From Lama guanicoe (lineage: Eukaryota), in assembly GCA_013239625.1 (NCBI GenBank), contig MU053196.1:186001-250000 (forward strand): a stretch of DNA of 64,000 nt. The letters are read 5' to 3'. Below, in pieces: positions 12,941 through 63,962 of this stretch. A program made the position numbers and the translations under genes. Under the pieces are notes generated by a model, which saw nothing but the letters and a program-made list of their open reading frames with translations, was not told the DNA's origin and made no database searches. Position 1 is the first letter of the stretch. Every line of letters starts with the position of its first letter.

Positions 12941-13006
12941 ATATTACCGCCTCCTCCAATATATCTTTAAAACCTTCCCTTTCTGGGCAGTTTTCTCTGA
13001 GACCAC

Positions 13007-13400
13007 TTTAAATTTCCCGCCTCTCCAGCTGGCGCAACTTCTCGTGGGACGTGTGCGGCGTGGGCGGGGCCCCGCAGCTGCTGCCGGTTGACTTGGGCGG
13101 TTGAGTTCCGGTCCGTGGGGAAGTCGCCGGCTCTGTTCCAACCGGCTGGATGCGGCGGCAGGCGAGGCCCAGCGGAGCCGCTAGGCCGAGTTGCTGACCA
13201 CGGAGAAGCCACATTGCAGCGGGACAGCGACTGTGTCGGCTCCGGAGAGGCGCGAAGACCGGCCTGGAGGTAGGGCAGGCGGCGAGGGCAGTGCTCCGAG
13301 CTAGGGAGAGCGGGCTCGGGGGCCGCGCGCAGTGAGGCCGCAGAGGCCGAGGTGAGGAGAGCGGAGCCAGGGAGGCCCAGCCCGGCTTTAACGGTCGGGC
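13007..13400. promoter_or_regulatory. Compact CpG island / probable promoter with a + strand non-coding first exon
   Basis: Dense CpG in an AT-rich background. GC box GGGCGGGG at 13062-13069, ETS-like TTCCGG at 13106-13111, E2F-type TTTCCCGC at 13013-13020. Donors GAG|GTAGGG (13269/13270) and GAG|GTGAGG (13351/13352). Confidence 0.8.
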
Positions 13401-14559
13401 TTCTAGTGACAAACTCTTTCTCACTCTTCCTTTGTAGGAGAACATCTGTATTTCTCTTTTCTTGTTGAAGTTTAATCCTCTGGAGTTAGAGGCAGAAAAG
13501 TTCTGCAGCGATATTTTTAAAACATAAATTTTGGAAGAGGTAGTGTCAAAAGTTAAGAAAAGACTAAAACCAATAAATCGCTGAAGTAGTAATTAGTAAA
13601 ATCTCATTTTCACACACACCAAAAGATAGTGAACCAGGAGCACTCAAACCAGAAGGTGGAATGAGGTTCAGGGGTATTTTGTTATAAAGCAACTTTTATA
13701 GTGAGAAGGCCGTGACTTAATTTTGCTTATGATTTCCAGATAGCAAAGAGTCTCAGGTTTGACTGTTGAAAACCAGTGTAATTCAACAACATAGCATTTG
13801 CAAGCTAGAGATCTTGGAAAAACATTAGGTAACAATGAAAGATACAGTGAATTGAATTCAATTAAAATTAAAGGAAAGCATGGATAACAAATAATAAAAA
13901 TACAGTAACGAAAATCATTATGTGATAACAAATAGAAGTCTTAATGCTGAGTAATATAAAACCAAAATGTAAAAAACAAATTTCTGTATACAAAAGAATT
14001 TATGAAAGCGTATTGTATTTGGAGAGTAAAAAAAAAAAAGAATCTGTGACTGATCAGGTAGATAAAATTTAAATGAGAAAATGAGAACCTGCCATATAAT
14101 AAGCACCAAAATAATCTTTAATTAAATTGATATAAATACTTCAGTAAATAAGTAGAACCAATAGATGTATGTTGTATTTTATATGGTGTAGTCAATAGTT
14201 TTTCATATGGTCATGGAATGTTTTCCCCCAATGCCAAATATTAGATACTAGACCACAAAAAGTTCAATAAATGTTTAAAAAATATTGATGTAAAATATAA
14301 ATCCAAAAAATCAAGAAACTCTGCTAAACACATGGGGAAAGATGATGGAGCTGATTAAAGGAATTCTGGTCCTTATTTTAATATTTCCCAAGATCATTCC
14401 AGATGGCCAGCATGAGTTCAAATATGTTTTTGATAATCATGTAAAAGTACCACTTTCCATCACCAATAAATTAAAAAACTAAACTGCAATGAAGATTTTC
14501 ACTGGAGATTTATATAAAATCTGTAATTTTTTCATGAAACACAATAAAAAGGAAAACAA

Positions 14560-24255: not shown

Positions 24256-27200
24256 GAAGGCAGAGACTCACTATAATTAATCTGAATGTCCCTTCGTTGT
24301 CGTCACCAAAGGAGGGAACACGAAACCCACTGTTAATTTAAAATACCAGTCCAGTAAGCAGATTTTTTCCCTCCTCCTTTCTTTCCTTTTTCATTCATTC
24401 ATGAATTAAAGGTTTATTATGTGTCCTGGCCCTGCATTAGTCAAGCTACTCAGTGAGTGGTGGGGGATGAAGCAGGTGTCTTGTCCACCCTCAGGTCTGT
24501 CAGCCAGGATTCCAGCAGGAAGCAGTGACACACTCCAAATTCCAAAATTCAAGGATGACTCAATAAAGGGAATGGTTTTTAAGGTGGTGGAAGGTTGTAG
24601 CTTGGGGCTGATAACAGCTGTAAATACTCTTGATCTGAAGAAACAAGGGAAGGGAGTGGTTTTTATAACCTGGAAGAAGACAGCTGTGTGGAGAGCAGCT
24701 ACCTTGGGGGAAACCATGACCTTCACTGGAGTGGAGGGCACTGCCAATCCAAGGGGACTTTCACAATGGGAGCTGGAGAACTCTGTGCTCTGTCTTTCCC
24801 TCCAGTAGCCTGCTGGGCTCTCAGCTGACTCAGCCACATGGAAGGGCAGAAGGCATGGGGATCTGTGATATTTTCTCTTCGGGTCCTTATCCTGGAACAA
24901 AAGGTGCAGAATTTTGGAGAATTAACTGGGAGGAGCAAACAAAAGGTATAGAGAATGTCAGGAAACTCATGCTTTCTCCCATGGGTGTGTGTGCAGGTGT
25001 TCCTCCTCTCAAGACTGTATGTAATGTTCGTCTCAGCGTGGCCTCACCCACAAGGAGCCCGAGGGAAAGGGATTAGTATGCTGTGGGTTTCCCCTGTCAG
25101 GGCTGCCTCCCTGGACCACATCCCCTTCTTCAAAAGAGCCTTGTTTTTGAACTAGACAAGCAAATAGGAGATACAAAGCAAATATTTGTTTGTGGTGTAT
25201 TCAGTGTCCTATGCAAATGGCATTTAGGTGTATGTAACTGGTGCTATGGAGCCTGGCATTTTAAGCAAACTCCAACTTGTATAAAGAAGCATTTAAAAGG
25301 AAGAAGGTTGAATGCTGTGGCCTGTGTTGGCCTGTGTGTGAATTATATGGCATTTTTGCTTTCTACACTGTTTGAGGTCTGCAGTGATGAAATGCTTCAG
25401 TGTCAAATCTGTAAAATCCACTGCCCTCTGTTCTTTTTCCTGTATAAATAGAAGCTGACAGTTGGAGCTTTTGTCACTGGCAATTTCAGATTCATTATTC
25501 TGAATAGACCTGACATTCAGGTCCTTGGTTGTAAAAGACTTTTAAATGACAAGCAGAGTCAATTTCCTTAGGTAAGGGGAATTTGTGGTTGTGTGTTTAC
25601 CTTTGATATTGTCAAAAAAGAAGCGTCATGACATCCTGGAAGGATAGATTTATGATTATAAGGAGTCAAAAACATTAATCTTACTTCTAGATGTCTTCCA
25701 AATGGACATTAATAAAGTGCTTTCATAAAGAAAAGAAGCAGAGTCTGATCAGCTCTGCAGTGGTATGTCTGAGAATACCAGTTTTTACTTATTGAGCATA
25801 TGCCAGTGTTGTGGGGAGTATTCCTTCCATCTGTAGTATACTTTATTTACGTGGGAAAAACATTAATAAACAAAGAACTACCATGAAGTTTAAAAACAGG
25901 AAAGCCACTGGAATCAGGCGGCATACTGGAAGAGGACTGCCTCTGTCCTCCACTCTCACTGGCAGAGATAGTTAAAAGCAGTATCATAGCATGTTGGGGC
26001 AAGGAGAATTCAGAAGTAAAAGACTGGATCGCATGCTTCGGAGGTGAGAGGTAGGATGTGAGCACAAGTGGATCCCAAGACTGTAATAGCCCATTCTAGA
26101 AAATGCAGAAGGCCAAAGTCTGCACAGGACCTCCAGGGAACTCCACCTGTACTGCACTTTCAAAAGGCCATGTGCCTGCTGTGCAGAGGTATATTGGAGG
26201 TCACCCAGTGTGAGTCAGCAAGAGAGAAATGCGAATATAAAATTTCATCTGCTTTCTTTAAATTTCTCACAGACTCAAGAAAAAGCCGGAAATGGCAGGG
26301 AAAGAGGTCAAGTGGTAGTGAAGGAACAGGTGTTACCTCTCCTACTATAGCTCCATGGTTCAGGCTCGTATTGGAGGAGGAAAGCTTTGGGTTGAGAAGG
26401 AGATGAAAGTTTTGATTTAAAATCGATGAAGTTTTTCACCTAAAGGTGAATCTTACTTACTGACCATGGATTTTGATCCTTTAAAATGACTCAGAAGTCA
26501 TGTGATATGTGTAAAATGGGAGCAGAGATTAAGCAGAATGTGTTTAAAGACAATATTTGTAGGAAAATAAAGCTACTCCCTGGTCTCTGTACACCAGTTA
26601 TAATAATAACCTAGGATTTTCTGCATATTGAATTTGAAGCCACAGTAACCTGATGAGTCAGTACTACGCTTTCTGAATAGTTTTATTTCATTAACAAATA
26701 GGGTGAAAACATTGAGATCACTTGGATTGAGCAGAATACATCTAGTAGTAATTGTTCAACCAGAGTAAACTGAGTCACTGAGTCTTGGTCTTCACAACTG
26801 CTACTTTTGATGCTTAACTCTTTAACTTCTAGGAAAGCTTCCACTAAACTTGTAATTACTGTAACTCAGCAGTAATACAGACAGCATTTCATTCCAGTTT
26901 TTAAACATCAGTGTCTGTGGGTAGGCATGCGAAACATGCAGATGATTGAGAATCTAAGGAATTGGGAGAAAAAAAAACCCAAAGGAAAGTCTCACTTTGA
27001 AAAAAGGAAGAAGACAGCAGTGGAAAGGGGAGTATGTATATATTGGGCAAAGAAAGATTAATGCAGTGGTTAATGATGAGTTTACTAATAGACTGTAAAG
27101 AGGCATTGAAATGTGGCAGAGTTTAGGAAAGATAATAGAGTTGGACAAGAAGGAGTTTTTTGTCATGAAAGTTTGTGAGAAAGAGGAAGGGAGGGAGGGA

Positions 27201-27283
27201 GAAATAGGATTGATAGGAATCAAAGTGAAAAAACAAGAAAGGGAAAATTTCATAAATCCTGTATGGGTAAAAAAATGAATTCC

Positions 27284-27284
<1 letters not shown>

Positions 27285-27314
<30 letters not shown>
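27285..27314. repeat. (TG)n microsatellite
   Basis: ~15 TG units. Confidence 0.95.
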
Positions 27315-27316
<2 letters not shown>

Positions 27317-27479
27317 TTTGAGTTTTGTGTGTGGCTTTACATTATCCTGGATATATTGCTGCTTTATCCTAATCAGTCAAAATACTCTCCATGCTGTTGA
27401 TGTGATTTGAAGTTTAAAGTTCTTGGTGACTATGCAGGATGCTTGCTTTTCTCTCATGATGTTATCAAGCAAGGGTTGC

Positions 27480-30900: not shown

Positions 30901-32759
30901 TTTCTTAAATTCTCTGTTGGAGTTGAGTTTTTTTTTTCCTGAAGAAATGCTTTTAGAGTTTTAATTGCAGTTTACATTCTGTATCTTGTTTTTGCTGCAA
31001 TAAAGAGATTGGTGCATCCAGTTAGACCAATTAAATTATTAATTTTGGTTAAAGACTTTTCAGAGATCATTTAATGAAAAAAATTAGGCTTTACAGATTT
31101 GAGATTCAAGGTAGTAAGTTCCCAGAAATCATGAAACCATATTACATTCTAGAGTGATTCAAATATTTTACGACAGCAGTGGGACTATGGAAATTTATTG
31201 AAAATTTGACTTGAATCTGTTTTTTTTTTAAATGTTAAGATTGTTGTTATAAATGACAAATTTAATTCTTGATTGATGAAAATCTTTATTTTTCAGCCTT
31301 TCCCAAATACCAGTGGCATGTCTGTCTCCACCTATTACTCAAATTTAATCATGGAGGACTTGTGAAATAAGGCAAATAAGATAGAAAAAGGTTATCTAAT
31401 CCATTTAAGATCTTAATAGTACTCTTTCTAAGTTATTAAGAGAACCATCACTTAGAGACTGAAATTATTTTATTTTCCTAGATGACATCTCCTATTTCCC
31501 TGTGATCTTTTCAGAGGTTTCAGAAACGCATGCGTAACACAATCATGTATGCCTCAGGGATGGCACATTGTATAGCTCTGCCATTAGATAAGGGTACTTG
31601 CTGTATCTATGGGGGAAATGCCGTGCTTTGTCAATTTACTGCCTCTCTGAATCTGAAGGCACCATTTAAAACTGGATGTAGTAGTTTACTAAGTGGTGTC
31701 AAGTGTTTAAGCTCTAGAAAATAAGCTGTTTGAACCGTGGTTGCCCAGGGATCAGATTTCCTTTTCTTGGTTGTTGGAAGTTGTTTCTCCCAGGAGTGTG
31801 TGTAGGTATGTGTGCAAGAGAGAGAGAGGGAGGAAGGGAGAAAGAGTGAGTTGGATACTAAATTATTTCCATTTTTGATGTCCTTTGGGTATTGGTAAGA
31901 GCTCTTTTGAAATGATCCAAGATTTCTGGAATTGTAATTTAAGCGTATAATATAGGATTGAATTATCAATATCCTGGACCAGTTTGTGACTAAGGAACCC
32001 TTTGAGGTGACATTTAGGTGCAAATAGCCAGGCTGAGAGACTTGACTTGCATAAGTGATACTTTATGAACTCCACAAGCATGCCCTAGTTAGTAGCTGAG
32101 TCTCTGTGCTTGCTCCGCACTAAAAGCCACTTTTACTTTACATTTGAGAGAGTGCCTCACGTTGGTGGCATTCAGAGCCAGGGTGTATTCCCGCAGTGGG
32201 CAGTGAAAGGCCCAGCAGTTTTTAGATTTTGTGAAAAAACTATTGTAGAAACCGAGTAGCCCTAGGAAAGCCTGAGGACTTACTTTGACTTTTTGAGTAG
32301 ATGATACACACTCTAACACTTGATCCTAAGTGGTCTTATGTTGAGGTCTGTTGATACGTTGGTATTATACTTATCAAAACAGCTCACTCTTACTCATCAA
32401 GAAAAAAAAATCATCTGTTTTTCTTAGGTCTCTCATGATGAAATCAGTGCTCTAAAGTCCACGATCTCTGGATTCCATGATTCACAACACAGTCGAATCA
32501 CAGAATTATGTAGTGTCTCTTTTCTGAATGCTGGGTCTTCAAAAAGTGCTTAAAATTTCAGAGTCCATAGAAAGGCCAAATGATAGGACAGAGTTTGATC
32601 TCTTTGAACATCTATGGTAGCAGCCTGAACAATAATTTATAAACATAGGATGTATTCAGTTTTCGAGACTTCTGTCAGGGAGAGTCAGGAGTTAGCACTG
32701 CAGGTGAGTTGGCCATGATGCTGAAGTGCCTCATCATCAGAGGCCAGATCATCTGCTAG

Positions 32760-35276: not shown

Positions 35277-35355
35277 GAAGAAATGAATCACAACCAGAAA
35301 GCCAGGAAGACCCCCGGGAAGTACTTAAGAAAACATTGGAATTCTGCTTGTCCAG
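35277..35355 (+). CDS. LARP4B: LARP4B-like exon 1 of 13 visible (start of La motif; phase-1 acceptor)
   Basis: tgtgtag|GA AGA AAT...TCC AG|gtaagg; [25 protein letters not shown]. Confidence 0.95.
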
Positions 35356-41300: not shown

Positions 41301-44300
41301 TGGCTTTGTAGGTTGAGTTGGAAAGTACTCTAAAGTGTTTTGGAAGAGTTTGTACTGTAGAATTGGTGTTTTTTTGTTTTTGTTTGTTTTCCTGAATGTT
41401 TGATAGGATTGTGTAGAAAATGTTCTTTTTTTCTATAGTACGCTTTGGTATGCTCTGTGTGCTTTACGGACTGTTTCTGTTTCATGGAAGTTGTCTGATT
41501 TACTAGCAGGAGCTTTTCCATAATGTTCCCTTGTTACCCCCTTGATAGCAGTAGAACCAGAGTGAATTTATGTCCTTTCTGGAGCTGGTAACGCATGTCG
41601 TCGTGGTGGTGGATGGCCCTGAGCTCTGATAGTGACCTTGATGTGCTGTGACCTGACTCTGTATGGGATACAAGTTTACAGAGTGACACCAAAAGGCAAA
41701 ACCTAACCGAAAGGAGATCAGTAAAAGCCAGTGAGGCCTGAGTCAAGCCTGACTGGTACTGGCGGTGTTTACCCCTGTTTCAAAGGTGCAAAACCTTTTG
41801 ATAGTTTGTGTTGAACTGTCAGGATTTCTGGTGTTTACCTGTCGCACAGCTTTCTTTAACGCAGTTAGTAGTACAGTCTAGCACGCCCCTCCAGGGTATC
41901 TATGTGGTCGTAATGAAAAACAAATGGTTGATTTGTTTTAATTTTGTGCACCATCCTTTTCCCTTCTCTGCACAGCTTTACCTTTAGTCCAAGTGGACGA
42001 GAAGGGAGAAAAAGTGAGGCCATACCAGAACCGCTGCATAGTCATCCTGCGCGAGGTATCTGAGTCCACCCCCGTAGAGGTAAGTCGCTTCTGCTCCGAA
42101 GGGTATTTGCACTTCTCTGTGGCTTTTCTGCTTACTTCTGTGGGTTTTGGAGGGTGTATTTTAAAGAATGAGTAGGTAAAGTAACACTTTTCCCCAGGAT
42201 TTACACACTCAGAGTGAGAGTGGTTCTCAAGCTTTCTGGTCTTGGGACTTCGAGTACACACTTGACGTTAAAAAAAAAAAACAGTTTATGGTAGCTTCCA
42301 TTTTTAGAAATTAAAAGGAGAAAGGCTTAAATATTTATTCGTTTTAAAATAAGAATAATAAATCCACAAGTTGAGACAAAACATATTTTTATGCTAAATA
42401 ATTTTTTGGAACAAACGCTTTTTTGAGGAGAGGGCCGCCACGGGCGCCAGTGTGCATGTGCTGGTTCGAGCCAATGTGCGGCCTTAGCGCCTTTCTGGGG
42501 CCAATTTGAATGATGATTTTTTTCTCATTATACATCATATCTTTATGTCTCTTTGTGTGCCTGGTAAATTTTGAATGCATGCCGGGCATTTTGGAGTTCA
42601 CTTTATACTGAGTGGTGGTGTTTCCCTGGGCTCTGTGTTGAGGTTTAGTCAGTGGCGGGGGAGCAGAGCAGATGCACCGGACACTTCCCGGCTGAGGCTG
42701 GTGGGAGGGGCAGTCATGCGTCCCAGAGAGCTCAGGGGTTCCCTCTCGTCGGGTGGCTATTTCCTGCGTGCTGGGTCCTGGGGTGCCCCTGAGCTTGCAG
42801 TTTTGGGCTGGCCTGTGCTCACTCTCCTGGCACCATGGCTTGGGAACCCCAGGCCCTCACTGGGCACTCGGGCTCACTTACACCTGTCCCCCAGGGACTG
42901 TGCTCCTGTGTGGCCTCAGAAACCATTCTCTCTTATATTTTGTCTTTGTTTCCTGTGGGGAGGGTATGTTTGGTCCATCTTAGCTGGAACTGAAAGCCCA
43001 GCTAATTTTTAAGTTTCTTAAATTACCTTCCTCCCCTCCTCCCCCAGTTGTGTGGTTATTGGCCTCCTGGTAAGATAAAATGGTATTTTCACGGTAATTG
43101 AGTCAGTGGTACATTGGAGGTCAGTAGGTTGTGAGCTTGTTTCCTGTGGCAGTGGGATCCTCACTCTGGAAGCCACACTGAACGCCTAGCCACTTTGGGA
43201 GGGTTCTAGACATCAGTGTGTTTGGCTTGTCTTCTAAGCATCTGTCCTTCAGAGTGTGTCATTTCTGTTTAGGGAGGACAAATGGTGGCACAGCTGGGAA
43301 TTTAATTAACTTCTGACCTCTTTCCTGTAGGAAGTAGAAGCACTATTTAAAGGAGACAACTTACCAAAGTTCATAAACTGTGAATTTGCCTATAATGATA
43401 ATTGGTTTATTACATTTGAGACAGAGGCAGACGCACAACAGGTGAGCTCGCTGCCCCTCCCCCCACCCCACCCCACCCCACCCCGTGGAGCGCACTAGCC
43501 GTTGGTACACAATGGGACTCTGCGCCTGTGGGCCGCTCTCGTGCCGCGGTGCTGGGTTTGAACATAAGTGCAGAGCAAACCAGAGCAGGTGTGTGTGTGC
43601 AGACAGTTCTGTAGCAACATGGAAAGTGCAGGCATGACTTCCTAAGGACGTGGGAGACTGACAGCGTAGGAAAACTGGTTCTGCTCTTTCATCTGTGCAG
43701 AAAAAGGTTTGAATATTTAGAAAAGTGTTTGGGGGTTTTGAACCTGACCCTGACGTTGCAGGGCAATGTTGCATTGCAACATCCTTAAAAAAAGCGTCAA
43801 GAGGCTCTCTGTGGGAGACAGGGAGTTCAGGGGGTTCCCTTCCCGTAAAGGAAGACTCTTCCTTACGGAGACATGCGCCCATGTAGGGAGTGCCCTGTAT
43901 GTAGTACCAGGTGTTGTCAGCGAGACTGCTGGGGCTCGGCCAGAGAAGCCAGGGTCTGAAAGCTGGGTTTTAACTGGGTGAAGGGAAGAGGGCCTCACAG
44001 GAACAGAGAAATGGGAGGAGGGAGAGCCTGTCTGGAGCAGCACGAGCCCTCCTTCCCACGTGGGGCGGCTCAGAGCCCTCGGGGTCGTGGGGGACGTGCG
44101 GAGAAGGAGGTGGTTCGTAAATAATGACTTGAACACTGTGATCTTCACTCTTTCTTTCCCAGTCTGTGTAATTCCAGGTGCACGTTGGGGTCATTGTTTC
44201 CCCGGGTGAGGATTCTTAGCCTGTGATCTGTGGGATGCTGTTGTAGTTTCTGTTAATGCTTAGAAAGCTGTATACAGATATTGTTCGTGAGAATTTTTGA

Positions 44301-47300
44301 CAGTTCCGTAGCCTCTGTCAGGTTCTTTTGAGGAGTGTGACCCAAAAAGGTCAAAGGGTACTGTTCTTGGTCACGTCCACCGTGTGTTAAGTACACAGCT
44401 CCTTATTCGAGGCACTGAGTTGTCAGTTCGTCTTATTCGTAAGATTAACACGTTGGTATCACGGATGGTTCTTGCCCTCAGGCGTACAAATATCTGCGAG
44501 AAGAAGTCAAAACTTTCCAAGGAAAACCAATTAAGGTAAGCGGGACCTTTGGCTGTACTTTGTGTGCGAATCAGTGTTCCTTAGTATTCTCCCAGAAGCT
44601 TACTGTTTTCACACAGGTGCGGATAAAAGCAAAGGCAATAGCTATAAACACATTTTTGCCAAAGAACGGCTTCCGGCCCCTGAACTTGAGCCTCTACACG
44701 CAGCAGCGCTACACGGCCTCGTTCTACTTGCCTTCGTTCTACTTGCCTCCGGTCTACAGCGCCCAGCAGCACTTCCCTCTCTACAGCCTGGTCGCCCCCC
44801 AGGCCTGGTCAGCCACACACAGCTATCTCAACCCGCCCCTGGTGAGTCCGGCTTCATGTGGGGCTCAGGCGGGGACACCTGCCCCAGCGCAGCAGCCCTC
44901 ATGGTCAGTTTATTGGGAGGCACGGGGGCTGGCTGCACACACTGAATGCATTTTGTGTGATGTGATCCAGCCCTTTGCCCAGGTTGCCTCCCTCCAGTCT
45001 GGCGTTCCCTAAGCTGTGTAGTCCTTCGTACAACGCAGAATGTGACTGCACGTTCCAGGAGAGCTGGGGCACTTGCAAGCATGAGGGGTGCAAGGAGGTG
45101 CATCTGAAAAGGGTTTTGCAGTGGGCTCCCAGCAGTGCAGCCGAGGAGAAGACACTCTAGCGGGCCTCACCCTGCTGCGCCTTTCTCGGAGTGGACGTTC
45201 CTTGCAGAACGTGGAACAGAGGTGACCCAGGTTGCCGCAAGGTGCAGCACTAACCAACTGAAGTCTCTTTGTTCTTAATAAATCTAGGTAACTCCATTTC
45301 CAAATGCTGGATTTATAAATGGGTTCACGTCTCCCACCTTCATACCTGCAGCATTTCCTCTGGCCTCCCTCAGACAGTACCCTCCAGGAAGCAGGTAAGT
45401 AATATGAGGTCACCGCCATACTGTGTGCTTTCAGAGCAGAGCAGAAACATGACACGTGGAAAACCTTGGCAGTCCTCACCACGTGCTCAAGTCCCCCTGA
45501 CACTCGCTGATGATAGATTTGACCAGCGTTAATGTCCATCAGACATGAAACACCCAGAAGTGTGGGATCACGCACTCTGAGAATTAGACCCTCAAATGTG
45601 TGCTGTGGTGCCTGCAGAAAGGACAGGCTCACTGGAGACAAAGGCTTCTGGGGACCTGGACCATAGCCAAGCAGAGCATTGATGTTGTTTTCAGATTGGC
45701 ATTATCAGACATACTATAAGTTAACAATGCTAAATAAAGCTTTTTGTATTTTTTTCTAAATAGAACACTTTTGCCTAGACGTTTGCGTATTAGCATGCTC
45801 ATTTTGTGACTCTGTGACCGTTCTAGAGCTGAGCTGTACAAATGCTTTATTTATAGGAACCCTAGTAATTCTCATCCATGCCATGCCATCCCCAGTGCAG
45901 AGAGAGGGCCTGGGCTCCTGGAAAGTCCTTGCATGTTTACCTTCACTGAGGATCAGCTGATTAATGGTGTCCAGAGCCCGCAGATGAGGCCGGCAGGTCA
46001 GCCTCAAGCACGGGCACAGAACCCTCCAGCCTTCGCCAAGAGAGACGCAGGGCCGGGGCGCGTGGAGCCGGGCAGTCTGGAGCCCTCCCCTGGCTTAGGT
46101 AGAGGAAGGTGAGTGCTTAGTCTTTGCTGGGCAGGCACCTGGTGTTCTATAAACTGTTTGTAGTTTCAGGTTCCATTCATTTAGGTGTGTTCTGCAATCA
46201 TTATTTTCAAATCCATCACAGAAAATCACATTGAAGGCTGTAGCCATCAGAGGTTTTGTGTGATTACTTAGAGGGTAACTTTCAGAGCAGGCACTTGCTG
46301 GTTCCCTCTTTTTGGTGATAGGACACCGTCCTGTGAGGACTGGGGGTGGGCTGAACCGTGTTAGGTCCCAGTCATCCTTTGTGGAGAATTGACCAGCCTC
46401 CGTGTTCTGTGAGCCTGTGGTCGCCCCGCCTCACTCCTCCTGCCACTGCAGAGTCATATGGCAGGCAGGCAGTGAGTTGTGTGGGCGGGCAGACCAGAGT
46501 TTAAATTCATATTGAACTTACTTATAAACAAGAGCTGTTCCGGTTACGTGGTGCCGCTGGCCACATTTAGGGGAGGTCTCGCCTGCCCTTCCATGGCTCT
46601 GGCAGGTCCTGCACAGCCTGCCCCTTGTGCCCTCTCCCCGCTCACTTCCATGGGTGCCACTCCCTGTCTCGCCCTCTGCGGGGGACAAGATGGGAACGGG
46701 GAGGGGTGCAAGGGTTCATCAGTGATGTCTGGCACGGCCTTGACAGGTGGAGGCTGGCTTTATCCATTTCCTTCCCTCAGCGGTTAATTCCAAACGGGCT
46801 GCCAGGAAGGACTTGCCCTCTGACCCAAAGCCACAACCAGCACGTGTTCAACCTGCCTAAGATTTTTTTTTACCCACTTGGAAAACTTTTAAGAACAATT
46901 TCTTCATGTGTTCTGTACAGAGCAGATAGGACCATGTCTGACACACAGAAGCCCCTCCGTCAGGCACCCGGTGTGCACCCAGGGCAGTGTGGATGTCCCG
47001 TTCACCATGGCTGGGTGGAGTTGGCATGGCCGGGGCTGCGTAGCATCAGGAAATTGGACATGAAGTTGGCTGGACAGGCACTGGAGGGCTGAGGGGCAGA
47101 GGGGACACTGAGGAAGTGCAGACGCAGCGACCTCAGGAAGCACCTGCTGCTGGGGGAACGGCATGGGTTGTAAACTGAGGGGCCTGGAGCAGGGCCTGCG
47201 GAGCTGAGGCTAGGCCCTCAGAAAGGTGGTCCTTGGGCGCAGTCAGGGCTGGTTAGAGATGGTGCGGGAAAAGTGCCACCAGGAAGACTCGTTCCCAGGC

Positions 47301-50300
47301 CTCGCCATCGTCCTGGGCATGGAATAGGGCCCGCAGGTGCAGAGCCACTGCCCAGCGTCTCCACGGTGGGGGCAGGCCACGCATCTCAGGTGGTCCTGCC
47401 ACCACTTCCGGCTTCAGACCACAGCAAGATGCGTGTGGTTTGTCCAACTTGTGGAGACCTCCTCCAGTAGGGGGTCGAGCTCCCCCCAAAGAGTGCCCCA
47501 GGACTTCATCCAACACCAGCCAGACATCAGGAAGGGGGAATGGTCAGCTGAGGTGCCCTGGGACGTGAAGCCGGCAGGGAGGGGCTGGTCAGGACGCCCT
47601 CATGGTCCTTGTTTCCAGACCAGGCCTCGGGCTCTTCAGGGCTTTTCAGCTGGAGTGTCGTTCAAACGCAGAGGGCAGGGGGGCTTTGTAGTAGGACTGC
47701 AGCCCAGGCCGAGACATGCTGCTTCTGCCGGGGTCGGGGTGGGGGTCTCATAGTCATGCCCGTCTTCATGACTTTGTGCCCATGCACCACGGGCAGAATG
47801 TTCCTCAGTCCTGTGGCATCCTGTGGGCAGGCATGTAGTCTCCATCTGCTGGGAGCCCCTTGAAAGCTGGGGACTATTTCTGGACTAGTTTCTACAGGAG
47901 GGTGTGGCTTTGGGCCAGAGTCCTGGAGGCCTGCACCGTGCTTCCCCTAGCGGGGCGGCCAGGCTGTCCCTGCTCAGCACAGGGGTCACACTCTGACACC
48001 TTAGGCCATCTTAGGCAAGGCTGCTGGGAGGTTCTCTGAGAAATAAAGGAATTAGTTGAGATTATTTCTAAATTCCCTTATAGTTTATGTAATACAGCCC
48101 TTAGGGAGCCTTTGCTTTCAGTGAAATGACAATCGATAAGTAAATAAAAGTAAAATTATGAACTGGAATTAGTATGTGGCTTGTCAGGCCGTGGAAGCCC
48201 GGGCACCACCCACAGTTTTGGCTGCGGCGTGTGGAACGGCTCTGCTGCCTGCGGGTGTGACTCTGCAACCTGGGAGCCCAGAACGGGGGTGTAAGGATGG
48301 CAGACAGGTGTAGAAAGCACAGGGGCTCCGCGACCTGCGTGGTTGGTTCAGCCAGTGAAGGCTGTTGGCCCAGAGCATGAAGGCCGGGGCAGTGAGCGCC
48401 TGCAGCTGCTTGGCATCTTGGTGATGACCACGCAGATGGGCGTTCATCACCGCTCTTTAATGGTTCGTCTTTGTAGCTCAGGATCAGATCTTACACGTCT
48501 TCTACAACTGAACGGATACTCAAGTATTTGCATGCTAACAGAAGTTCCAAATGGGAAAATCCTTTCAGTGTGTGTTTTACTTACCTTGCTAGACCTCAGG
48601 TTTAGTCCATTACTGTAAAATGTCTGTTTTGCTTACGCTCGTTAGGGTTGGGAATTCAGAATCAGAAGTCATCTGTATAAAGGCTGAATATACGTGCACT
48701 ACCTATGTGCTCAGTGAAATATGTTTCAAGGGGAAAAATTTAACAGTCCTGTGCTTTCCTCTTCCCTAGGAAAAACTCCCTTGGCTTCCAGAAGAAGAGC
48801 GAAGAGAAGTTCACAGTGAGTACATCGTGCCGCGCTCGGGACACTGAGCCTGGTTTACACTGAACAGACTTGAAGTGTAATTCAGTCAATTAAGGCACGA
48901 GAAGGAGCTTTTCAAAAGCCGTTTCCTCATATTACGACGTCTGCCAGATGATAATGGACGGTATTGATGCTCTGAAGAGAAGGCGGTGGTGGCTGGTTTC
49001 CTGAGGAGCCCCCGGTGCCCACGTGTCCTGTGCAGGTCACAGGCGCAGCCAGGGCGCGGTGTGGGCACAGTGGGGTCCGTCCGCAGGTGTCTAGCTGGGT
49101 TCTTTCTGTGTGGTAACCACGTCACCTGCTTTGAAATCCCTGGAGTTACAAGTTTGGGCACGCAGAACAGACCTCCCCCCCGTAGGAATTAGCTCATGAG
49201 TATTTCTGATTCACAGTAGCTTACTCTGTCCCCACTATGTAGGGAGCATAGTTGCCTCCTGCCATAACTCACGGTCGCGACAGACCCAGAAATGAGTGAT
49301 GATTTATGCAGGTGGTGGGTACCTGAGGCGTGGTCATGTCTGCTGGGGGTGGTTGAATGGCCCCTTCCGTGGGGGACACTCTGCAGGGCTCTGGGGTGGG
49401 TGCATGCGTCCCCACATGGCCAGGTGGGGTGCATGAATTTGGACGCTGGTTGTAGAGGGCAGGGAATGACCTTGGGGAGATTCTTGGTCTCACCCCGAGC
49501 CACTGAGCATGTGCCTTCTCCTCACAGAAGGTACCAGGTATTTGCCTGGAGCTTGGAAAGGGCAAATTGGTAGAAAATGAACACCCCTAATTCTATCATA
49601 TTGGTCATTTCAGGCCAGTTTTCGGTGAACCCTTCGGTAAGGCAGTTTTATGTCTGTTCTCGTTGGAACCAATGAATTCCTGTAACATTTGGATGAACAA
49701 GTCTGTGTCTGATGTCTCCTCAGACACTCGTTACCTTTTAGTCACTACATCACCTTCAAAGGTGACATTTTTTTTCCATTGCCATTTCCATTTCATTCTG
49801 TTTTGCATTCCGTTCCCATATTTGGACCTGGCGCCACTTAGAAGCCCAGCACGTGGAGCAGATGTGTGTGTTCAAGAGTGGGCCTCTTGTTGCGCTGGGT
49901 GGTCTGAGGGCCTGAGAAACCAGCGATGGGTCCCAGACTGTGTGAGCGGGAGGCGAGGCCCAGCCCGGCCCGTGGCACCAGGGGCAGCGCTGTGTCTCTC
50001 CTAACGCTGTTGAGACCCTGAAAATGCTACACACATCTCCTTCGTTCCTGGAAATTGAGACTTAGTAAATTTTTTTCAAGTATTTTTTCCTAAAAATGTG
50101 TATTTTCTAAAAAGCTGAGTTCACCTCAGAAACATGCAGATGTTTAAAATAAAGCCTCTAAAAATTGCTCTGAGCTGGTGGGGTCTGAGCACGAGCTTGC
50201 CGAACCTCAGAGTGTGCAGCAGCCTCGTTCCGAGGGCTCGTGCCTGCCTGAGTCGGGCTGCCGCGGGCCCCAGTGGCACTGAGGGGATGCAGGCAGGGGG

Positions 50301-53300
50301 CCCAGAAGACATGGCTTCGTCAGCTTGGGTCCGCTTTCATCCTCACCTGCTCTCCCCTGAGTGCTAACAGAGTCTTCTCCAGATTTTCCTTCTGTGGGGA
50401 TGGTTTTCCTGTTGGTGTAAGTTTCTGGGACAGGTTGGCCCTTTCAGGCTTCGTGGGCCCTGTGAGAGCCGAAGGGGCCCACGGCCCACCGCTCACCGCG
50501 AACGCCCCTGCTCTACTGAATACGAACGCGGTTCCTTGTCTGCTCCTTGTCCCTTTCAGCCAAGGAGCTGGGTGCTTACAGAACAGCATCCAGCAGGATG
50601 ACTAACAGTGTTTCAGTAAAAATACGTCACTGCCTTTCTCCTGAGATCCTGGGCTTATAAATCATGCTCAGATATCACTGTGCTGAGTCACTGTCTTACA
50701 GTCAGGGGACATGATGAGACTCTTAGCAAATACCATGCTTTTACTTACTGATTAAAATACAGGGCATTTCAGTAAGTTAGTTTTCAGATAACTGGAGCCC
50801 CCTCCCTTTTTCTGTTAAACTGTTTCTTTTAAAGGAAATCTCTGTAACATTTCTTACATAAGTTGTAGGGAGCTGAGAGAGTGGCCTCTGTTTTTCTTTT
50901 ACTGTTTCCTTTGTGACTTAGATTGCAGACTCTGCTGTAATAACACGGAACTTGTCAGGAGTGAGGAAGGTGAAGGCTGGACTCGGGCTCTTCTGCATCT
51001 GGCACTTTGCTGTGTCCTCCTGGTCTGTGTCGGCTGCCAGAGGGTCTTGGTGGCTGTACAGATGCGGCTCTTACCCCCATCTCTGACCGTGGCTGCAACA
51101 GCCCTGAGGTTTCATCTTCTCAACTCTGCCCTTGAAGAGCTCTTGCCTAACAGATGAGCTCTTTTCAGGTGACCACGGCTTGGCATGGTTGGACTAGCTG
51201 TCCATTTGGAGGCAGGTGTGGACACCAGGAGACTGGGGACCAAGCGTGGGCCTCCCTCACCTGCTGTGTTTCTCAGCACCTTCCTGCCCGTCCACCCCAG
51301 GCAACTTCATGGTGTTCTTCTCTTTCAGAGGAGTCAGACTCAGTCTCCAACACCACCCAGGCCTCCGTCCCCTAGCTTTGAATTAGGGCTGTCCAGCTTC
51401 CCCCCGCTGCCCGGGGCAGCAGGGCATCTGAAGACAGAGGATTTGTTTGAGAACAGGCTGTCTGGATTGCTCACAGGATCGTCCAAAGAAAGGGTAAGAC
51501 CCAGCTCCCACCCTCTGCTCGCTGACACCTACCCAGCACCTATGTGGGCTCTGTGCTCACCTGCTCGCTTCCACATGCACAGGAGGCTCGTTATGTGCCG
51601 GGCTGTGCTGGGCACTGTGCTGTCAGGGTGAACCGAGGACTTCCGATGCCTGGCCAGTGGGGAGGAGGGCTGCAGCTGGTGGTGCTGGACCACAGAAAAG
51701 GGCCTCGGATGAGATACGTCGACAGCTGCAAGAGGATGGGGGCGGCTGCGGCCTGGCTGTGTTTCCAGCTCTGGTCTGGGCTGAGCACACCCGTCCTCAG
51801 GGCAGGACCACACCTGGGCTTCCAGCACTGTCAGCCACATATTTGTCATTACGTCTGGGGTCTCACAGACGCTTGTCTACCGGTTGTAAACTGTTTTTCC
51901 GATGGTTTTCAGAGCCTAAACGCAGATGCCAGCATGAACACTCTTCCCACGGTAGTCCCCCAAGAGCCCTTGTTGCCGGCCCCCTGTGCCACACCCACCA
52001 CCATCGAGCATGCTCCCTTCCTCCCCCGCCCGCCCAAGTAAGTGCCACCCTGTCCCCATCCCCACGTGTCCCCACTGGGCTGCCCGTGGGCGGGGCACTC
52101 ACAGGCCTGTTGGGTGGCACTTTTGCAGGGATCCCAAGGTGGTGGAGAAGCAGAGGGACACCACAAATGTGTTCAGACTTCCTCCTGTCCTGAGTACAAC
52201 CGCCAGCAAATCTGTGCAGGTGAACGGCGCCACCACGGTAGGTGCCCCGCTGGGCGCTGTGCTCTGTCCAGGGTGCCCTGCGGGGTGCTGGCACTCGTGA
52301 CTGCCCGCTCTGCTCATTTCTCCTGCCACGGCCAAGGGTCTCCCGGCCTTGGGCTCCTGAGCGGGGCTGCCTTCCTGAGTGGCCTGGGGCTTGCAGCTCC
52401 AGGCTCCGCGGGGCTTCTGGCCACCTGAGCATGTTGGGACCAGGGCCACTGGCCCAGCCCCGCCCCAGGCCGCTGGCCCCTCCTCTTGTCTCCTCCCCTG
52501 GGTGCTGGTCCCGACTCCTTTCTGTCTGATCTGTGTTGTCCTCAGCTTGATGCCGGGTGGGCTTTAATCACCTGGATTTGGAAGTTAAGCGCTTCTTGTC
52601 CACTAGGTTTTCTCATAAGTTACAGTTATTTTTAAGTTAATAAGCAGTTGATGGAGGTGACGTAGCTTTAAATGTTCTCTTCTGTCTTAACCTTCATCCT
52701 CCACTTACCTGCAAGCCCCGCTCACTTTTTAAACCTTTTTAGCTCTTGCCCGAGCCCCAGCCCGTGGTCGTTGCCAGATGCCCTGGAGCCGTGTTGCAGT
52801 TCACCTGCCTTGCATCCCTGAGGCTCGCACTGGGCTGCACAGGGTGTCTGGCGTGGAAGCACGTGCTGCCTCTGTGTTTCTCTAGGCGTCTGGTGTCTTC
52901 GCCTCCTTTCTGGCTGGAATGTGGCTCAGAAACGCCAGAAGGCCAGAGGCTGGAAGGAGTTTAGTTGGCACTTTGTATCCCCACACCTTTTCCAGTTTTA
53001 CCTGTTTTTACCACGTGTTTCTAGAGTATCTTGGAAGGAAAGATGGGCTGCAGTGGAAACTCATTGTTGAAATGTGGAAACTTTTTATTTAAAAGTAACA
53101 GTACTTTAGAGTGTGGAGATTTAGTTACAGTTGAATCTCTTTGAACTTTACGTCAAGTGACCTTGACCTTCGCATGCTGTCCTGTAACCCCAGAGCTGTG
53201 TCTGCTTCCCAGGAACTGCGAAAACCCAGCTACGCAGAGATCTGTCAGAGGACGAGTAGGGAGCCGCCGCCGCCCCCACTGCAGCCCCCAAAAGAGCAGA

Positions 53301-53485
53301 AGCTAAACACTGTCGGCTGTGGGAAGGAAGAGAGGAAGCTCGCCGAGAGGGAGCCCCCTGCCCCCAAGTCCAGCCCGAAACCACCCAGAGACCAGAGGAG
53401 GCCACTGGGGCACCGGCCCTCACCCCCAGCTGCGGGGCAACATCCGCACAGAGAACAGAGCACCCTCCCCAGGTCCCCTCAGTGA
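35277..53485 (+). CDS. LARP4B: La-related protein 4B-like (LARP4B homologue), 13 coding exons, 5'-incomplete; join(35277-35355,36762-36898,41976-42079,43331-43441,44482-44535,44617-44841,45288-45394,45857-46108,48770-48815,51329-51493,51913-52037,52129-52237,53213-53485)
   Basis: Manual splicing at AG/GT sites gives one open frame from [40 protein letters not shown]... to ...[11 protein letters not shown]. It contains the La motif, RRM and C-terminal motifs recognisable as LARP4B. May be a paralogue rather than the orthologue. Confidence 0.95.
36762..36898 (+). CDS. LARP4B: LARP4B-like exon 2 (La motif)
   Basis: tctgcag|G GAG AAT...AGG T|gtaagt; [45 protein letters not shown]. Confidence 0.95.
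39215..41530 (-). mobile_element. Intronic L1MB-type element (3' UTR + ORF2), GC-shifted
   Basis: tataaatggaatcag...cattctttcactcggcgtaatt; minus-strand ORFs [10 protein letters not shown] and [20 protein letters not shown]. Confidence 0.75.
41976..42079 (+). CDS. LARP4B: LARP4B-like exon 3 (end of La motif, start of RRM)
   Basis: gcacag|CT TTA...GTA GAG|gtaagt; [34 protein letters not shown]. Confidence 0.95.
42218..42480 (+). mobile_element. hAT-Charlie DNA transposon remnant
   Basis: agtggttctcaagctttctggtcttgggac, resembling a Charlie1 terminus. Confidence 0.45.
43331..43441 (+). CDS. LARP4B: LARP4B-like exon 4 (RRM)
   Basis: cctgtag|GAA GTA...CAA CAG|gtgagc; [37 protein letters not shown]. 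Confidence 0.95.
44482..44535 (+). CDS. LARP4B: LARP4B-like exon 5 (RRM)
   Basis: ccctcag|GCG TAC...ATT AAG|gtaagc; [18 protein letters not shown]. Confidence 0.95.
44617..44841 (+). CDS. LARP4B: LARP4B-like exon 6
   Basis: acacag|GTG CGG...CCC CTG|gtgagt; [22 protein letters not shown]...[14 protein letters not shown]; follows an 81-nt intron. Confidence 0.95.
45288..45394 (+). CDS. LARP4B: LARP4B-like exon 7
   Basis: aatctag|GTA ACT...AGC AG|gtaagt; [35 protein letters not shown]. Confidence 0.93.
45857..46108 (+). CDS. LARP4B: LARP4B-like exon 8
   Basis: tttatag|G AAC CCT...GGA AG|gtgagt; [24 protein letters not shown]...EPSPGLGRG. Confidence 0.93.
48770..48815 (+). CDS. LARP4B: LARP4B-like exon 9
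   Basis: ttccctag|G AAA AAC...TTC ACA|gtgagt; [15 protein letters not shown]. Confidence 0.92.
51329..51493 (+). CDS. LARP4B: LARP4B-like exon 10
   Basis: ctttcag|AGG AGT...GAA AGG|gtaaga; [55 protein letters not shown]. Confidence 0.95.
51913..52037 (+). CDS. LARP4B: LARP4B-like exon 11
   Basis: ttttcag|AGC CTA...CCC AA|gtaagt; [41 protein letters not shown]. Confidence 0.9.
52129..52237 (+). CDS. LARP4B: LARP4B-like exon 12
   Basis: tttgcag|G GAT CCC...ACC ACG|gtaggt; [36 protein letters not shown]; follows a 91-nt intron. Confidence 0.92.
53213..53485 (+). CDS. LARP4B: LARP4B-like last coding exon
   Basis: ttcccag|GAA CTG CGA AAA...[28 protein letters not shown]...STLPRSPQ*. Confidence 0.95.
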   Translation, partial: ELRKPSYAEICQRTSREPPPPPLQPPKEQKLNTVGCGKEERKLAEREPPAPKSSPKPPRDQRRPLGHRPSPPAAGQHPHREQSTLPRSPQ

Positions 53486-56400
53486 GTACCAAGGTCTGGC
53501 GGGCTGCGAGGAGCTGGGGTCGCCACAACGAAGCACTGTCCCTCTCGAGACGGGAGTGAGCTGCTGGTTAGGAGGTTGCAGTGTAGATAAGGTCCCCGAG
53601 GTACCTGCAAGTTATTTTTCTTCTATGAGTCGGATTTCCCCCCTCTTGAAAAAAATCTATTTTTCAGGATTTAATTAATATAAATCTTATTTTAGGTTGG
53701 TGCTTAACTGGAGATGATGCATAAGTCTGATTTTTTTCAGGATATAAAATGCATTTATCCTAACAAATTGATATTTTTTATTAAACCTCCATGTGACTAT
53801 GAATGCAAGCTATATATATAGTGAGTTTTTCTAAATTAAGCAGAACTATTGTACTTCATTTTTTAAAATAACTGGTTAGCAAGTGCATATCTCTAAGATG
53901 TCCAGACCGATGGATGAGGCTGAGGACAGTGGGACTGAGGCACGGGGCAATGCTGAGTGTAGCCCGGAGGTGGTATGGGTCAGAGGGCGCCGCACGCTGG
54001 CCTGGAGGTGTCCATCCATTCAGAATCTTGACAAGGGTTCTAGCATTTTCTTAAGTCTAGCCCGTTTTGATCGCCTGGGCAGAGTGACCCTGCAGAGCAC
54101 CCCAAGAGCCCTCCTGTCCTGCCAGCAAGTAACCAGCTTCTCACTCCAGTCTCAAGTGGCTGTTAAGTGAGATAAACCCAAAGCACATTGTGAATGGAAC
54201 CTACATGAGAACATAAACTTTGTTGCCCACTGACACGTTATCGCAAAATGATACCCTGATGTTGTCTTACTCCCGCGAGCTGGCAGGGAGGGTGTGGAGC
54301 CGGCTCCTGCATCGGCCCGTTGCCGGGGTGCCTCCCCATCCCTCTGCACTGGTGCGCAGCTCGGAACATTCCTGAATTGTGAGAGAAAGTGTTTGTGGTG
54401 CCCGTGTGGTTGTGGAGGACCAGTTTCCCGCTCTCTTCCCAAGACGAGGGTCTCATGGACCCTTCTGAAAGTGCTGCTCTCAGAAGAACACACATGCACT
54501 AAAGCTAGCAGTTGATGATAAAGTTAAACATAAGTTATTTTGTTTTAAAATACCTAAATTTTTCCTTTAAGTGTGCTAAGCAGCAGACATTAAAATAAGA
54601 ATATTTCCTGCTAAATGTAACCATACAGTTTATTCCACAAAATGTTATTTAACAAGCCTGAGGTTTTGTTTTTTTTTTTTTAACATGATTTCCATCCAAT
54701 ATTTAAAGACTTGAATTTTATTTAAACTTGAAAATGACTTTGCCTTAACTTTTGTATAGGACAGCTTAGAGTCCATGAGACCGGCCCCTGGGTTGGCGCG
54801 AGTGGTTGCCGCTGCTCAGCCGCGTGGGCTCTGTGTCGCTCGGGCTGCTGAGTGAGCGTGCTGCAGGACAGGACGTGGCGGCAGTGCTGTGACACCGGGA
54901 GGTCCTAAGCAGTTGGTCTTTCTTCAGATTGTTGAGAAATCCTGTAAGTGCAAATAGTTGATACTGTATTATACATGTGCACTTGGGAGCGTGTGGTTTG
55001 CTTGTACAGTTGTAAGTAATCAGAACATATTAAAAAGGTTCCCTACAGAGAAAAATCTGATAAAAACTGATATATTATAAATGTTGCTATTGAGCTGGAT
55101 GTAGATAAACTCAGTGTTGTGGTTTGAACATTATTTTAATTCTTTGAGGTTTTTTCTTTTTCTCTTGTACTGGTGTGTTGGGCTGACTCTGCCTCTTTGC
55201 TGCTGTGAAAGGGAGATGAAAAGTCTTATTAAAACCTTCCAATATTTTCATGCTCTTCCTAAAAGTATGTAAATATGTACTAATCACAGCTAATGTGAAA
55301 GGGTTTTTGAGGTATAATCCAGAAAGTAGAAACTGGCAGGATCTCAAGTGAAAGTAAGAAATGAGTCTACCTAGAATCACAGGCGGCTCGCGCGACCCTC
55401 CCGCCGGAGGAAACGGTGTCTCCCTCGAGCAGCGCCTCTGTCCTAGCGCGAGGCCCACATGGCGCCATGCTGCTGGTGCCCCAGGAAGGAACGGGGGACC
55501 TTGCTTCTTTGTGGTTGTGAGATTGCTGGCTGAAAGATCAGAAATAACTGGCCTCCTGCACCCAAACTGGTGAGTGCTGTAGAAGGAGTCAGAAAGGCCA
55601 GCTCCCAGTGCTGAGATCCCCTGACGCTGCAGTCTGTGCTGGAGGAGGGGGTGGATGTCGCCAGCCACCGTCACCCCCGAATGTCACCGCCTGAATCCGC
55701 ACCCTCTTGGAGCCCGAGGCCCTGGAGGCGTGTGCTTGGCCCCGTGCTGCTGCCGTTGGAGGATGGGTGGAGGTGGCCTGTGGCGGCCGTGGCCTACACT
55801 GCCCCCTCTGCAGTCCTGGCTTCTAGAGTTGACCCCACTCGGGGGTGATTTTTGCAGCATCCTTTCTAATTAAGCCAGGGTGCGTGCCCAACGGCCCCCA
55901 CCTTTCTGATCCTCCTCAGAAAAGAACGGAAGGTGCAGGGCAGGAAGCTGGGAGGGCAGCTCTGCCACGTGCAGCTGCCCGTGTGGCTCTTCCTCCCCCA
56001 ACAGTGTCTCGAGGTGCAGAGTCAGAGGTACCACAGTCACAACGGCGCTCTCGCCTGTTCAGCTATGTGACGACCCGCACCTCCTGAAGTGTAAGGGTGA
56101 GACCCTGGCGCCTCACCAGATGTGAATTTCAAGCAGTGTAGTTGCTTTTTAGGAGTCAGCGTCTTGCTGTTCTGACCAGGCCTCCTGTGATGGCATCACT
56201 TCTGGTCACTCCAGCAGCAGGAGCGCCTTCTGTGGCCGTGGGGAGGCCGCAGCGGGGCAGGCGAGTGTCCCCGGGGAGCAGTGACAATCGCAGCTGGAGG
56301 AGGGGCCTGAGCCCAGCTCCCGGGGGGCTGGACGCTTGGCCGAGAGCTTTTGTTTTTGTTCTGCTTCTTTTCATTGAGACTGGAATCAAGCTTACGTGTA

Positions 56401-56505
56401 AACTATTGGTAATTTAAGTTTCCTTTTGTGTCACTTCAGTGTAAAACTGTCTAATTTGAAAAAATGTAGGTTATGAAAAATAAAGATTTAGGCACTGGTT
56501 TTTCT
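53486..56505 (+). other. LARP4B: LARP4B-like 3' UTR (~3 kb)
   Basis: Follows the stop codon. AU-rich blocks alternate with GC-rich blocks, ending at AATAAA followed by a U-rich tract. The 3' end is approximate. Confidence 0.7.
56479..56484 (+). terminator. Polyadenylation signal AATAAA
   Basis: gttatgaaaAATAAAgatttaggcactgg followed by a T-rich downstream element, with several TGTA motifs upstream. Confidence 0.75.
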
Positions 56506-61753: not shown

Positions 61754-61784
61754 ACTCTCCTTCGTATACTCTCCTTCGTATACT
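61754..61784. repeat. 14-bp tandem duplication
   Basis: actctccttcgtat actctccttcgtat act. Confidence 0.9.
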
Positions 61785-63939: not shown

Positions 63940-63962
63940 CTAACCCTAACCCCAACCCTAAC
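63940..63962. repeat. Short telomere-like (CTAACC)n tract
   Basis: ctaacc ctaacc ccaacc ctaac. Confidence 0.6.

Follow-up and report, generated by a model that had tools for sequence, protein, structure and literature searches.

In LARP4B, a PAM2w motif in its N-terminal portion binds the MLLE domain of PABPC1, and when this motif is mutated or deleted the protein is still recruited to stress granules, for which its C-terminal part suffices (PMC7356810). A second PABP-binding region sits after the RRM (PMC6486636), and RACK1 is bound directly by conserved region 2 (CR2) of LARP4 and LARP4B, with a contribution from conserved region 1 (CR1; PMC11565960). The main RNA binder of LARP4A is its N-terminal region and not the La module (PMC6486636), and the part of LARP4B that binds AU-rich targets is described as not known (PMC4478348). 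Here we describe a LARP4B-derived gene in a gap-free, 64,000-nucleotide stretch of mammalian DNA with zero N (Lama guanicoe, GenBank assembly GCA_013239625.1, contig MU053196.1, positions 186,001 to 250,000 of the forward strand; this whole stretch is referred to as the window). Sequence comparison indicates that the locus is a partial, DNA-based duplicate of LARP4B specific to camelids, present here in its Lamini form, and that it is the same gene as that named 'LARP4B-like' in RefSeq. The gene is already listed by automatic annotation in four camelids, as predictions without a described function, and no paper on a LARP4B duplicate in camelids was found in the open library that was searched. 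It is a LARP4B-family gene without a motif thought to be fixed in that family, and it arose through ordinary partial duplication. We give an even chance to the reading that this PAM2w-less duplicate acts as a weak modulator or competitor of LARP4B and LARP4 under relaxed selection.

The paralogy of the locus can be read directly from the proteins it matches. A protein search with the exon at 45810-46112 listed 120 proteins at E<=0.001 among 359 candidates, and among the matches listed Vicugna pacos 'la-related protein 4B-like' is the best (99% identity), with Camelus bactrianus at 93%, C. dromedarius at 89% and all other mammals at 79% or below; this identifies the DNA as that of a South American camelid or a very near relation. 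Two distinct genes are annotated by RefSeq for every one of alpaca, C. bactrianus, C. ferus and C. dromedarius (4 of 4 annotated camelids), and the placement of two genes is taken from the annotation of these four species. One gene encodes the canonical 'la-related protein 4B', of 730, 754 or ~1629 amino acids in camelids; the other encodes short proteins, mostly named 'la-related protein 4B-like', of 531-564 amino acids in alpaca and 508-634 in Camelus. To judge from RefSeq names and accessions, both lie on one chromosome-scale scaffold per species, with accession numbers that are well separated. The two Camelus forms, like and canonical, are 90% identical over 608 residues. The window product is identical to alpaca 'like' isoform X1 at 554 of 557 residues (99.5%) and to the C. 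bactrianus 'like' protein at 568 of 590, whereas it agrees with canonical alpaca LARP4B at only 537 of 590 (91%), that is, with 53 differences; the canonical proteins of alpaca and Bactrian camel share 584 of the same 590. A maximum-likelihood tree of 24 sequences groups the five duplicates together (100/100), with the four canonical camelid proteins as their sister group, and supports the joint camelid clade at 100/99. A perfect 15-nucleotide tandem duplication at 44719-44748, which adds five residues, is common to the window and the Camelus duplicates and absent from every canonical LARP4B examined.

The RefSeq 'LARP4B-like' models (Vicugna pacos XP_072811103-112; Camelus XP_074214098, XP_064335415 and XP_032329725) represent the same gene as that in the window, with which they agree in exon set, five-residue insertion and alternative first exons. 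The alpaca model differs from the window at three residues, so that the DNA is that of a different individual or of a closely related Lamini species. An ATG opens the Camelus models, whereas the window has CTG at the corresponding place. LARP4/LARP4A (La module 6i9b; La motif 2cqk) resembles the locus in belonging to the La-module fold family, in its PABP and RACK1 partners and in CR1 and CR2, but it is a different, ancient vertebrate paralogue, and in the tree the duplicate clearly descends from LARP4B. Among the canonical proteins, many mammals have predicted LARP4B 'isoform X1' proteins of ~1500-1870 amino acids (P0004, P0129, P0135, P0137 and others), for which precomputed Pfam hits comprise the La and RRM families only. 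In the dromedary representative (P0004, 1625 amino acids) the part matching the window begins at residue 1035, and the extension maps nowhere in the window.

The earlier note on this DNA had proposed a paralogue as opposed to the only LARP4B locus, and the paired RefSeq genes, the closer match to the 'like' proteins and the duplicate clade bear this out. It is very improbable that the locus is nothing special, being either a sole LARP4B gene whose N-terminal exons lie further upstream, outside the window, or an assembly artefact. The window does begin just 35 kb upstream of the first visible exon. However, the differences from canonical alpaca LARP4B, together with the five-residue insertion, go beyond what misassembly or a haplotype copy would produce; both genes are annotated in four independent assemblies, and the tree separates them with full support. 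In addition, 14 DNA runs (five organisms, six studies), one of which may be the source sample, contain 78-86% of the words of 51300-56500, and these shares support the sequence being real.

The exons were placed by tblastn of nine and ten further proteins, followed by a junction-by-junction search for exact ends; LARP4B-like pieces on the plus strand were already visible in the stop-to-stop listing of open reading frames. The resulting spliced model has, as the earlier note had described, 13 exons with canonical splice sites, a phase-1 start and an uninterrupted frame: it spans 35277-53485 on the plus strand, with AG...GT and a pyrimidine tract at every junction, and the LARP4B-derived frame is open for 595 codons and ends at a TGA (53483-53485). 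Twelve parental introns are kept, at the points where the tblastn blocks of the protein alignment break. A processed retrocopy was considered and ruled out, introns being present. From residue 141 onwards the locus resembles canonical LARP4B (alpaca P0133, 730 amino acids) in its intron-exon structure, its La-motif exons, a near-identical RRM, CR1 and CR2, the position of the stop and a long 3' untranslated region, but the canonical protein has residues 1-140 with PAM2w, whereas the duplicate is without them and has new 5' exons.

The first LARP4B-derived exon (35277-35355; all exons are on the plus strand) is entered in phase 1, begins 16 codons upstream of the Pfam La domain and holds an out-of-frame ATG at 35283. 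It is followed by the La-motif exon of 137 nucleotides (36762-36898), which contains the first ATG in the LARP4B frame, at 36781 within the La motif and used as the start of alpaca isoform X1; this exon is skipped in alpaca isoforms X2 and X4. Exon 41976-42079 completes the La motif and encodes the linker and the beginning of the RRM. The RRM continues through 43331-43441, where the protein is identical to canonical camelid LARP4B, and 44482-44535, and it ends in the exon at 44617-44841, which also encodes the post-RRM region and carries the 15-nucleotide tandem duplication. Two exons encode disordered regions (45288-45394 and 45857-46108, the latter being the source of the first protein-search query), and a coding exon of 46 nucleotides lies at 48770-48815. 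CR1 (FPPLP, then AAG) is encoded at 51329-51493, and the exon at 51913-52037 is the part most diverged from canonical LARP4B. A further coding exon (52129-52237) precedes the last one (53213-53485), which contains the stop codon and CR2 with its YAEIC turn, the element that contacts RACK1 in LARP4B. The 3' untranslated region (53486-56505) is ~3 kb long, and an AATAAA at 56479 fits an end at 56505, in agreement with the 3' untranslated region and polyA signal noticed earlier. The TGA stop overlaps a strong donor (TCA/GTGAGT, exon end 53481). Joining this donor to an acceptor at 54760 would exchange the stop for two additional codons and give the '...QTA' C-terminus of the alpaca RefSeq models. 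Such a splice would place an intron within the apparent 3' untranslated region, and the need for it hints that the alpaca RefSeq models rest on transcript data.

No credible match to residues 1-140 of canonical alpaca LARP4B was found in the window, the mapping beginning at residue 141. When these residues were run through tblastn at permissive settings (word size 2, E up to 5), three hits came up, with E of 0.77-3.0; each lies downstream of 53 kb and none upstream of 35277. That LARP4B N-terminal exons are missing upstream had been seen in the earlier reading and is upheld. Likewise, the canonical LARP4B proteins of deer, peccary, mole, gorilla, hippo, alpaca and Bactrian camel map to the window only from about residue 140. 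PAM2w is absent from the window product and from all the 'like' models aligned, whereas the C-terminal motifs, as had also been proposed, are kept: CR1 (FPPLP and AAG) and CR2 (the YAEIC turn) are intact in the translated model, the motifs being taken as they appear in the source (PMC11565960). The stretch equivalent in position to the second PABP-binding region (PBM), which is loosely mapped in LARP4A (PMC6486636), is present and shows 7 changes over 105 columns. One change from canonical LARP4B falls in the RRM core (model residues 96-180). The RRM family PF26088 is listed for the duplicate's models among precomputed Pfam hits, but hmmscan returned PF26088 for no protein, the canonical one included, and the RRM call rests on the precomputed hits and on identity.

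The state of the La motif depends on where translation would begin. Exons 35277-35355, 36762-36898 and 41976-42079 together encode a complete La motif (Pfam PF05383) in open frame. Scores over the whole Pfam La profile are 61.8 bits for the Camelus orthologue P0003 (profile positions 1-59) and 64.2 bits for the canonical protein, against a cut-off of 37.1 bits. For the product that begins at ATG 36781 (alpaca P0124), the match is confined to profile positions 19-59 and reaches 31.4 bits, short of that cut-off. None of the candidate upstream exons, when spliced on at a strong donor, provides an in-frame ATG ahead of the La motif, and a complete La motif is present in none of the six alpaca RefSeq isoforms examined. 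If the 137-nucleotide La exon is skipped, ATG 35283 opens a La-less frame of 547 codons that runs through the RRM and onwards, corresponding to alpaca isoform X4.

Several candidate first exons lie upstream of, or within, the LARP4B-derived region. A small CpG island at ~13010-13400 is a candidate promoter with a non-coding first exon on the plus strand: it is a sharp block of ~400 bp within AT-rich DNA, with 47 CpGs, an observed/expected ratio of 0.87-0.91, GC boxes at 13062 and 13095 and plus-strand donors after 13269 and 13351. Within 12700-13700, a pattern scan for AGGTRAG donors gave none on the minus strand. The island to which the earlier note had assigned the promoter is real, if small, but none of its strong donors (13269, 13331 and 13351) supplies an in-frame ATG when joined to 35277. 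At 25926-26043, on the plus strand, tblastn places an exon homologous to the one with which the coding sequence of the Camelus LARP4B-like models opens, and which encodes 40 novel residues; residues 1-40 of Camelus P0003 map to 25926-26045 with 92.5% identity. Here the start codon is CTG (ataCTGg), with an in-frame stop upstream, where Camelus has ATG; the donor (GAG/GTGAGA, after 26043) is kept, and the 53 open codons before it contain no ATG. An out-of-frame ATG at 25883 lies ahead of the CTG. A word-based protein search with this exon matches the Camelus cluster only. Its capture from another gene was considered and set aside, two hits from exhaustive HMMER searches being rejected as repeat artefacts: one was the translation of a tandem repeat, matching weakly nine times over 22 residues, and in the other no stretch passed. 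From its sequence, the exon looks to have been recruited from local non-coding DNA and not captured from another gene. Two more first exons have counterparts in other models, namely 32715-32744 (+), homologous to the first exon of an older C. bactrianus model (P0127) but followed here by GC instead of GT, and 38319-38337 (+), the coding portion (six codons and one base) of an alternative first exon with ATG 38319 and donor G/GTAACC, which matches the start of alpaca isoform X6 (P0123). As a separate observation, similar peptide strings occur in the open reading frame translations of 33350-33541 and 40088-40240, the former also resembling the N-terminus of an old unnamed model (P0002); the shared string probably belongs to an interspersed repeat, taken up by gene predictors as a first exon.

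These features bear on the form in which the idea was originally put forward, that of a PAM2w-less protein with a working La module, transcribed from the 13-kb CpG island and acting as a competitor or as a new mRNA regulator. We regard it as improbable. It has in its favour the exons that encode a whole La motif, with a frame open from 35277, and the full La domain of the Camelus models; the island likewise has GC boxes, plus-strand donors and an undecayed CpG content, and the context of CTG 25926 is favourable (A at -3, G at +4), such that near-cognate initiation is conceivable. However, neither the strong donors of the island nor the 26043 donor brings an in-frame ATG, the out-of-frame ATG 25883 precedes the CTG, no alpaca RefSeq isoform among those examined keeps a complete La motif, and the La motif has not been spared by substitution, with three stem changes and one Lamini change at conserved positions. 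The claim that the duplicate keeps its La module thus fails for this genome, where the ATG-36781 product falls short of the Pfam threshold.

The duplication can be dated from changes shared among the camelid sequences. Relative to the outgroups, 29 substitutions are common to all four camelid sequences, and because of these, the five-residue insertion found in both duplicate lineages and the tree, the duplication is placed, on sequence grounds, on the camelid stem, before the split of Old and New World camels. That split is dated to 11-25 million years ago, and the split of dromedary and Bactrian camel to 5-8 million years ago (PMC4884201). The two units of the 15-nucleotide tandem repeat at 44719-44748 are still perfect (0 mismatches between them), though the repeat is at least 11-25 million years old.

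Since then the two copies have changed at very different rates. Parsimony counts over 590 aligned columns assign 29 changes to the stem of the duplicate after duplication and 5 to that of the canonical gene; on the Lamini branch after the split the counts are 14 and 2, and on the Camelus branch 6 and 2. Position 401, one of those assigned to the Camelus branch, is more readily explained by a change on the stem that has reverted in the window, since the alpaca model shares it. In the tree, the stem lengths are 0.118 for the duplicate and 0.0077 for the canonical proteins. The duplicate protein evolves about five times faster than canonical LARP4B, from which it differs also in having lost constraint at invariant sites. 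The latter was examined with 15 outgroups, among which 374 of the 590 columns are invariant. Canonical branches after the duplication have 1 change at invariant and 8 at variable sites (Fisher p=0.0018), and the camelid stem before the duplication has 5 and 36 respectively (p=3e-12). At model residue 401, which lies in CR1 (exon 51329-51493), the window and all canonical proteins have Gly, and the alpaca and Camelus duplicates have Arg; the Gly could reflect reversion, polymorphism or a small conversion from the canonical copy.

Some parts of the duplicate have nevertheless been preserved. In the RRM core (residues 96-180) 6.9 changes would be expected, and 1 is seen (P=0.008); weighted by missense mutability under three mutation models the deficit has P ~0.005, or ~0.05 when corrected for nine regions. 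For CR1 the count is 1, with 4.1 expected, and no change has occurred in the YAEIC turn of CR2. In contrast, the La motif is not spared (5 changes against 5.9 expected), and outside the RRM the substitution pattern looks neutral. The 13 exons contain no disabling lesion, with 0 stops, 0 frameshifts and 0 of 24 junctions lost across 1785 coding bases. For 43-49 missense changes neutrality would predict ~2 nonsense, 2.5-6 frameshift and ~2 splice-site hits, and the chance of zero lesions is then ~5e-5 to 2e-3 at assumed indel-to-substitution ratios of 0.05-0.1, a probability that is weakened by ascertainment, the locus having been picked for being intact. The dromedary and Bactrian duplicates differ at 0 of 508 residues, those of the novel first exon among them; for the canonical proteins of the two species the figure is 3 of 730.

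Against the reading of the duplicate as a weak modulator or competitor, there are several considerations. The duplicate branches have changed 28 of 374 invariant sites (7.5%) and 20 of 216 variable ones (9.3%; Fisher p=0.44), and the duplicate therefore no longer avoids the positions that LARP4B normally protects. A single CpG transition could account for each of as many as 22 of 50 changes, with Arg to Gln, Cys or His frequent among them (the count of 50 takes in a few canonical-stem changes), and such a CpG-rich spectrum is the pattern expected of relaxed constraint. The indel and substitution rates behind the neutral expectations were assumed, not measured, and the identity of the RRM might come from gene conversion by the canonical copy. 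As for translation, when the La exon is kept the first ATG after 35277 is ATG 35283, which opens an out-of-frame, 63-codon reading frame overlapping ATG 36781, and Camelus and this genome have no start codon in common. Among the Camelus models, that of C. ferus is flagged LOW QUALITY and that of dromedary ends at 508 amino acids. Finally, among the 120 of 238 short-protein matches listed, none is a transcript-derived fragment of the duplicate: the Logan-derived rows among those listed have at most 92% identity and cover 13-15% of the query, and the only closer row is a partial NCBI model from dromedary. Six RNA runs contain 15-19% of the sampled words, a share that bears neither way on expression.

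Many of the same results would be expected if the Lamini copy were a transcribed relic, that is, an unprocessed pseudogene in the making whose frame is open by chance, ascertainment or occasional conversion and whose RNA has no protein function. The equal substitution rates at invariant and variable sites, the spectrum rich in CpG decay, the lack of transcript-derived fragments among the matches listed, the CTG in place of ATG, the La motif below the Pfam cut-off and the overlapping upstream frame from ATG 35283 all fit such a relic, as do the longer Lamini branch (14 changes against 6 in Camelus) and the differences between window and alpaca model, which amount to 3 of 562 residues and are all non-synonymous. 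We nonetheless consider it somewhat unlikely. The absence of any stop, frameshift or lost junction has a low neutral probability; the RRM deficit holds, and eight CpGs in the RRM core are still undecayed. Further, the Camelus orthologues are identical over 508 residues across a split of 5-8 million years (PMC4884201), and the C-terminus of the alpaca RefSeq models requires the 53481-to-54760 splice, which would be a hint of transcript support. The substitution pattern, taken as a whole, looks largely relaxed and not clearly neofunctionalised.

In the reading of the PAM2w-less duplicate as a weak modulator or competitor under relaxed selection, the anatomy, paralogy, age, rate and pattern of change and the condition of the start codons are shown by the sequences, and transcription, the choice of start, translation and binding are inferred. 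Of LARP4B, the duplicate kept the stretch that begins shortly ahead of the La motif and runs to the poly(A) site, 13 exons in all, and the sequence encoding residues 1-140 was lost. Most of the site constraint typical of LARP4B has since lapsed, with the frame, all the splice sites, the RRM core, CR1 and CR2 being retained, and the gene would be read via recruited upstream exons that do not derive from LARP4B. In Camelus, the recruited exon would add an ATG with 40 new residues in front of a La module that is whole. Here, with CTG in place of ATG at 25926, the likely products would be either a protein of 562-564 residues starting at ATG 36781, in which about a third of the La motif is missing, or a La-less protein of 547-549 residues from ATG 35283, made when the 137-nucleotide La exon is skipped. 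Either product could dock on RACK1 and ribosomes via CR1 and CR2, and perhaps on PABP via the post-RRM region, but would make no contact with the PABP MLLE domain, and La-type RNA binding in Lamini would be weak or none. If RNA binding by LARP4B resembles that of LARP4A in being N-terminal, the duplicate would lack that region also.

A bolder form of this scheme holds that camelids keep, under selection, a separation-of-function LARP4B, composed of the RRM, the post-RRM region, CR1 and CR2, without PAM2w and, in Lamini, without the La motif. Such a protein would sit on RACK1 and ribosomes, and perhaps on PABP, without using MLLE, and would tune the effects of LARP4B and LARP4 on poly(A); its start would be supplied in Camelus by an ATG in an exon derived from non-coding DNA and in Lamini by exon skipping or an internal ATG. 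This proposal is tentative, and we think it unlikely.

A LARP4B-derived gene whose frame, RRM and RACK1 motifs have stayed intact in two tribes over the 11-25 million years that it has lacked PAM2w amounts to a natural deletion experiment on the capacities of the remaining protein by itself. The locus is also a compact case of a 5'-truncated duplicate gaining new first exons, with different solutions in sister lineages. Should it be a slowly dying copy, it would be an ordinary partial duplicate, whose main value is as a warning for read mapping and orthology calls at camelid LARP4B.

Beyond this gene, no other gene was recognised in the window, Pfam returning 0 families for nine flanking open reading frames and Rfam 0 matches for the whole window; Tandem Repeats Finder at a score of 80 returned 0 rows. 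A run of alternating Thr-His codons in the translation of 26957-27376 on the minus strand reflects a CA/TG dinucleotide run, which is not listed by Tandem Repeats Finder. Downstream of the gene, 57000-64000 contains long open frames, for example 62267-63295 (343 codons), that have no Pfam match. The base composition of the window is AT-rich to ~32 kb and GC-rich past that point, and the GC content of 57000-64000 is 0.57-0.68, without the character of a CpG island (observed/expected 0.27-0.5).

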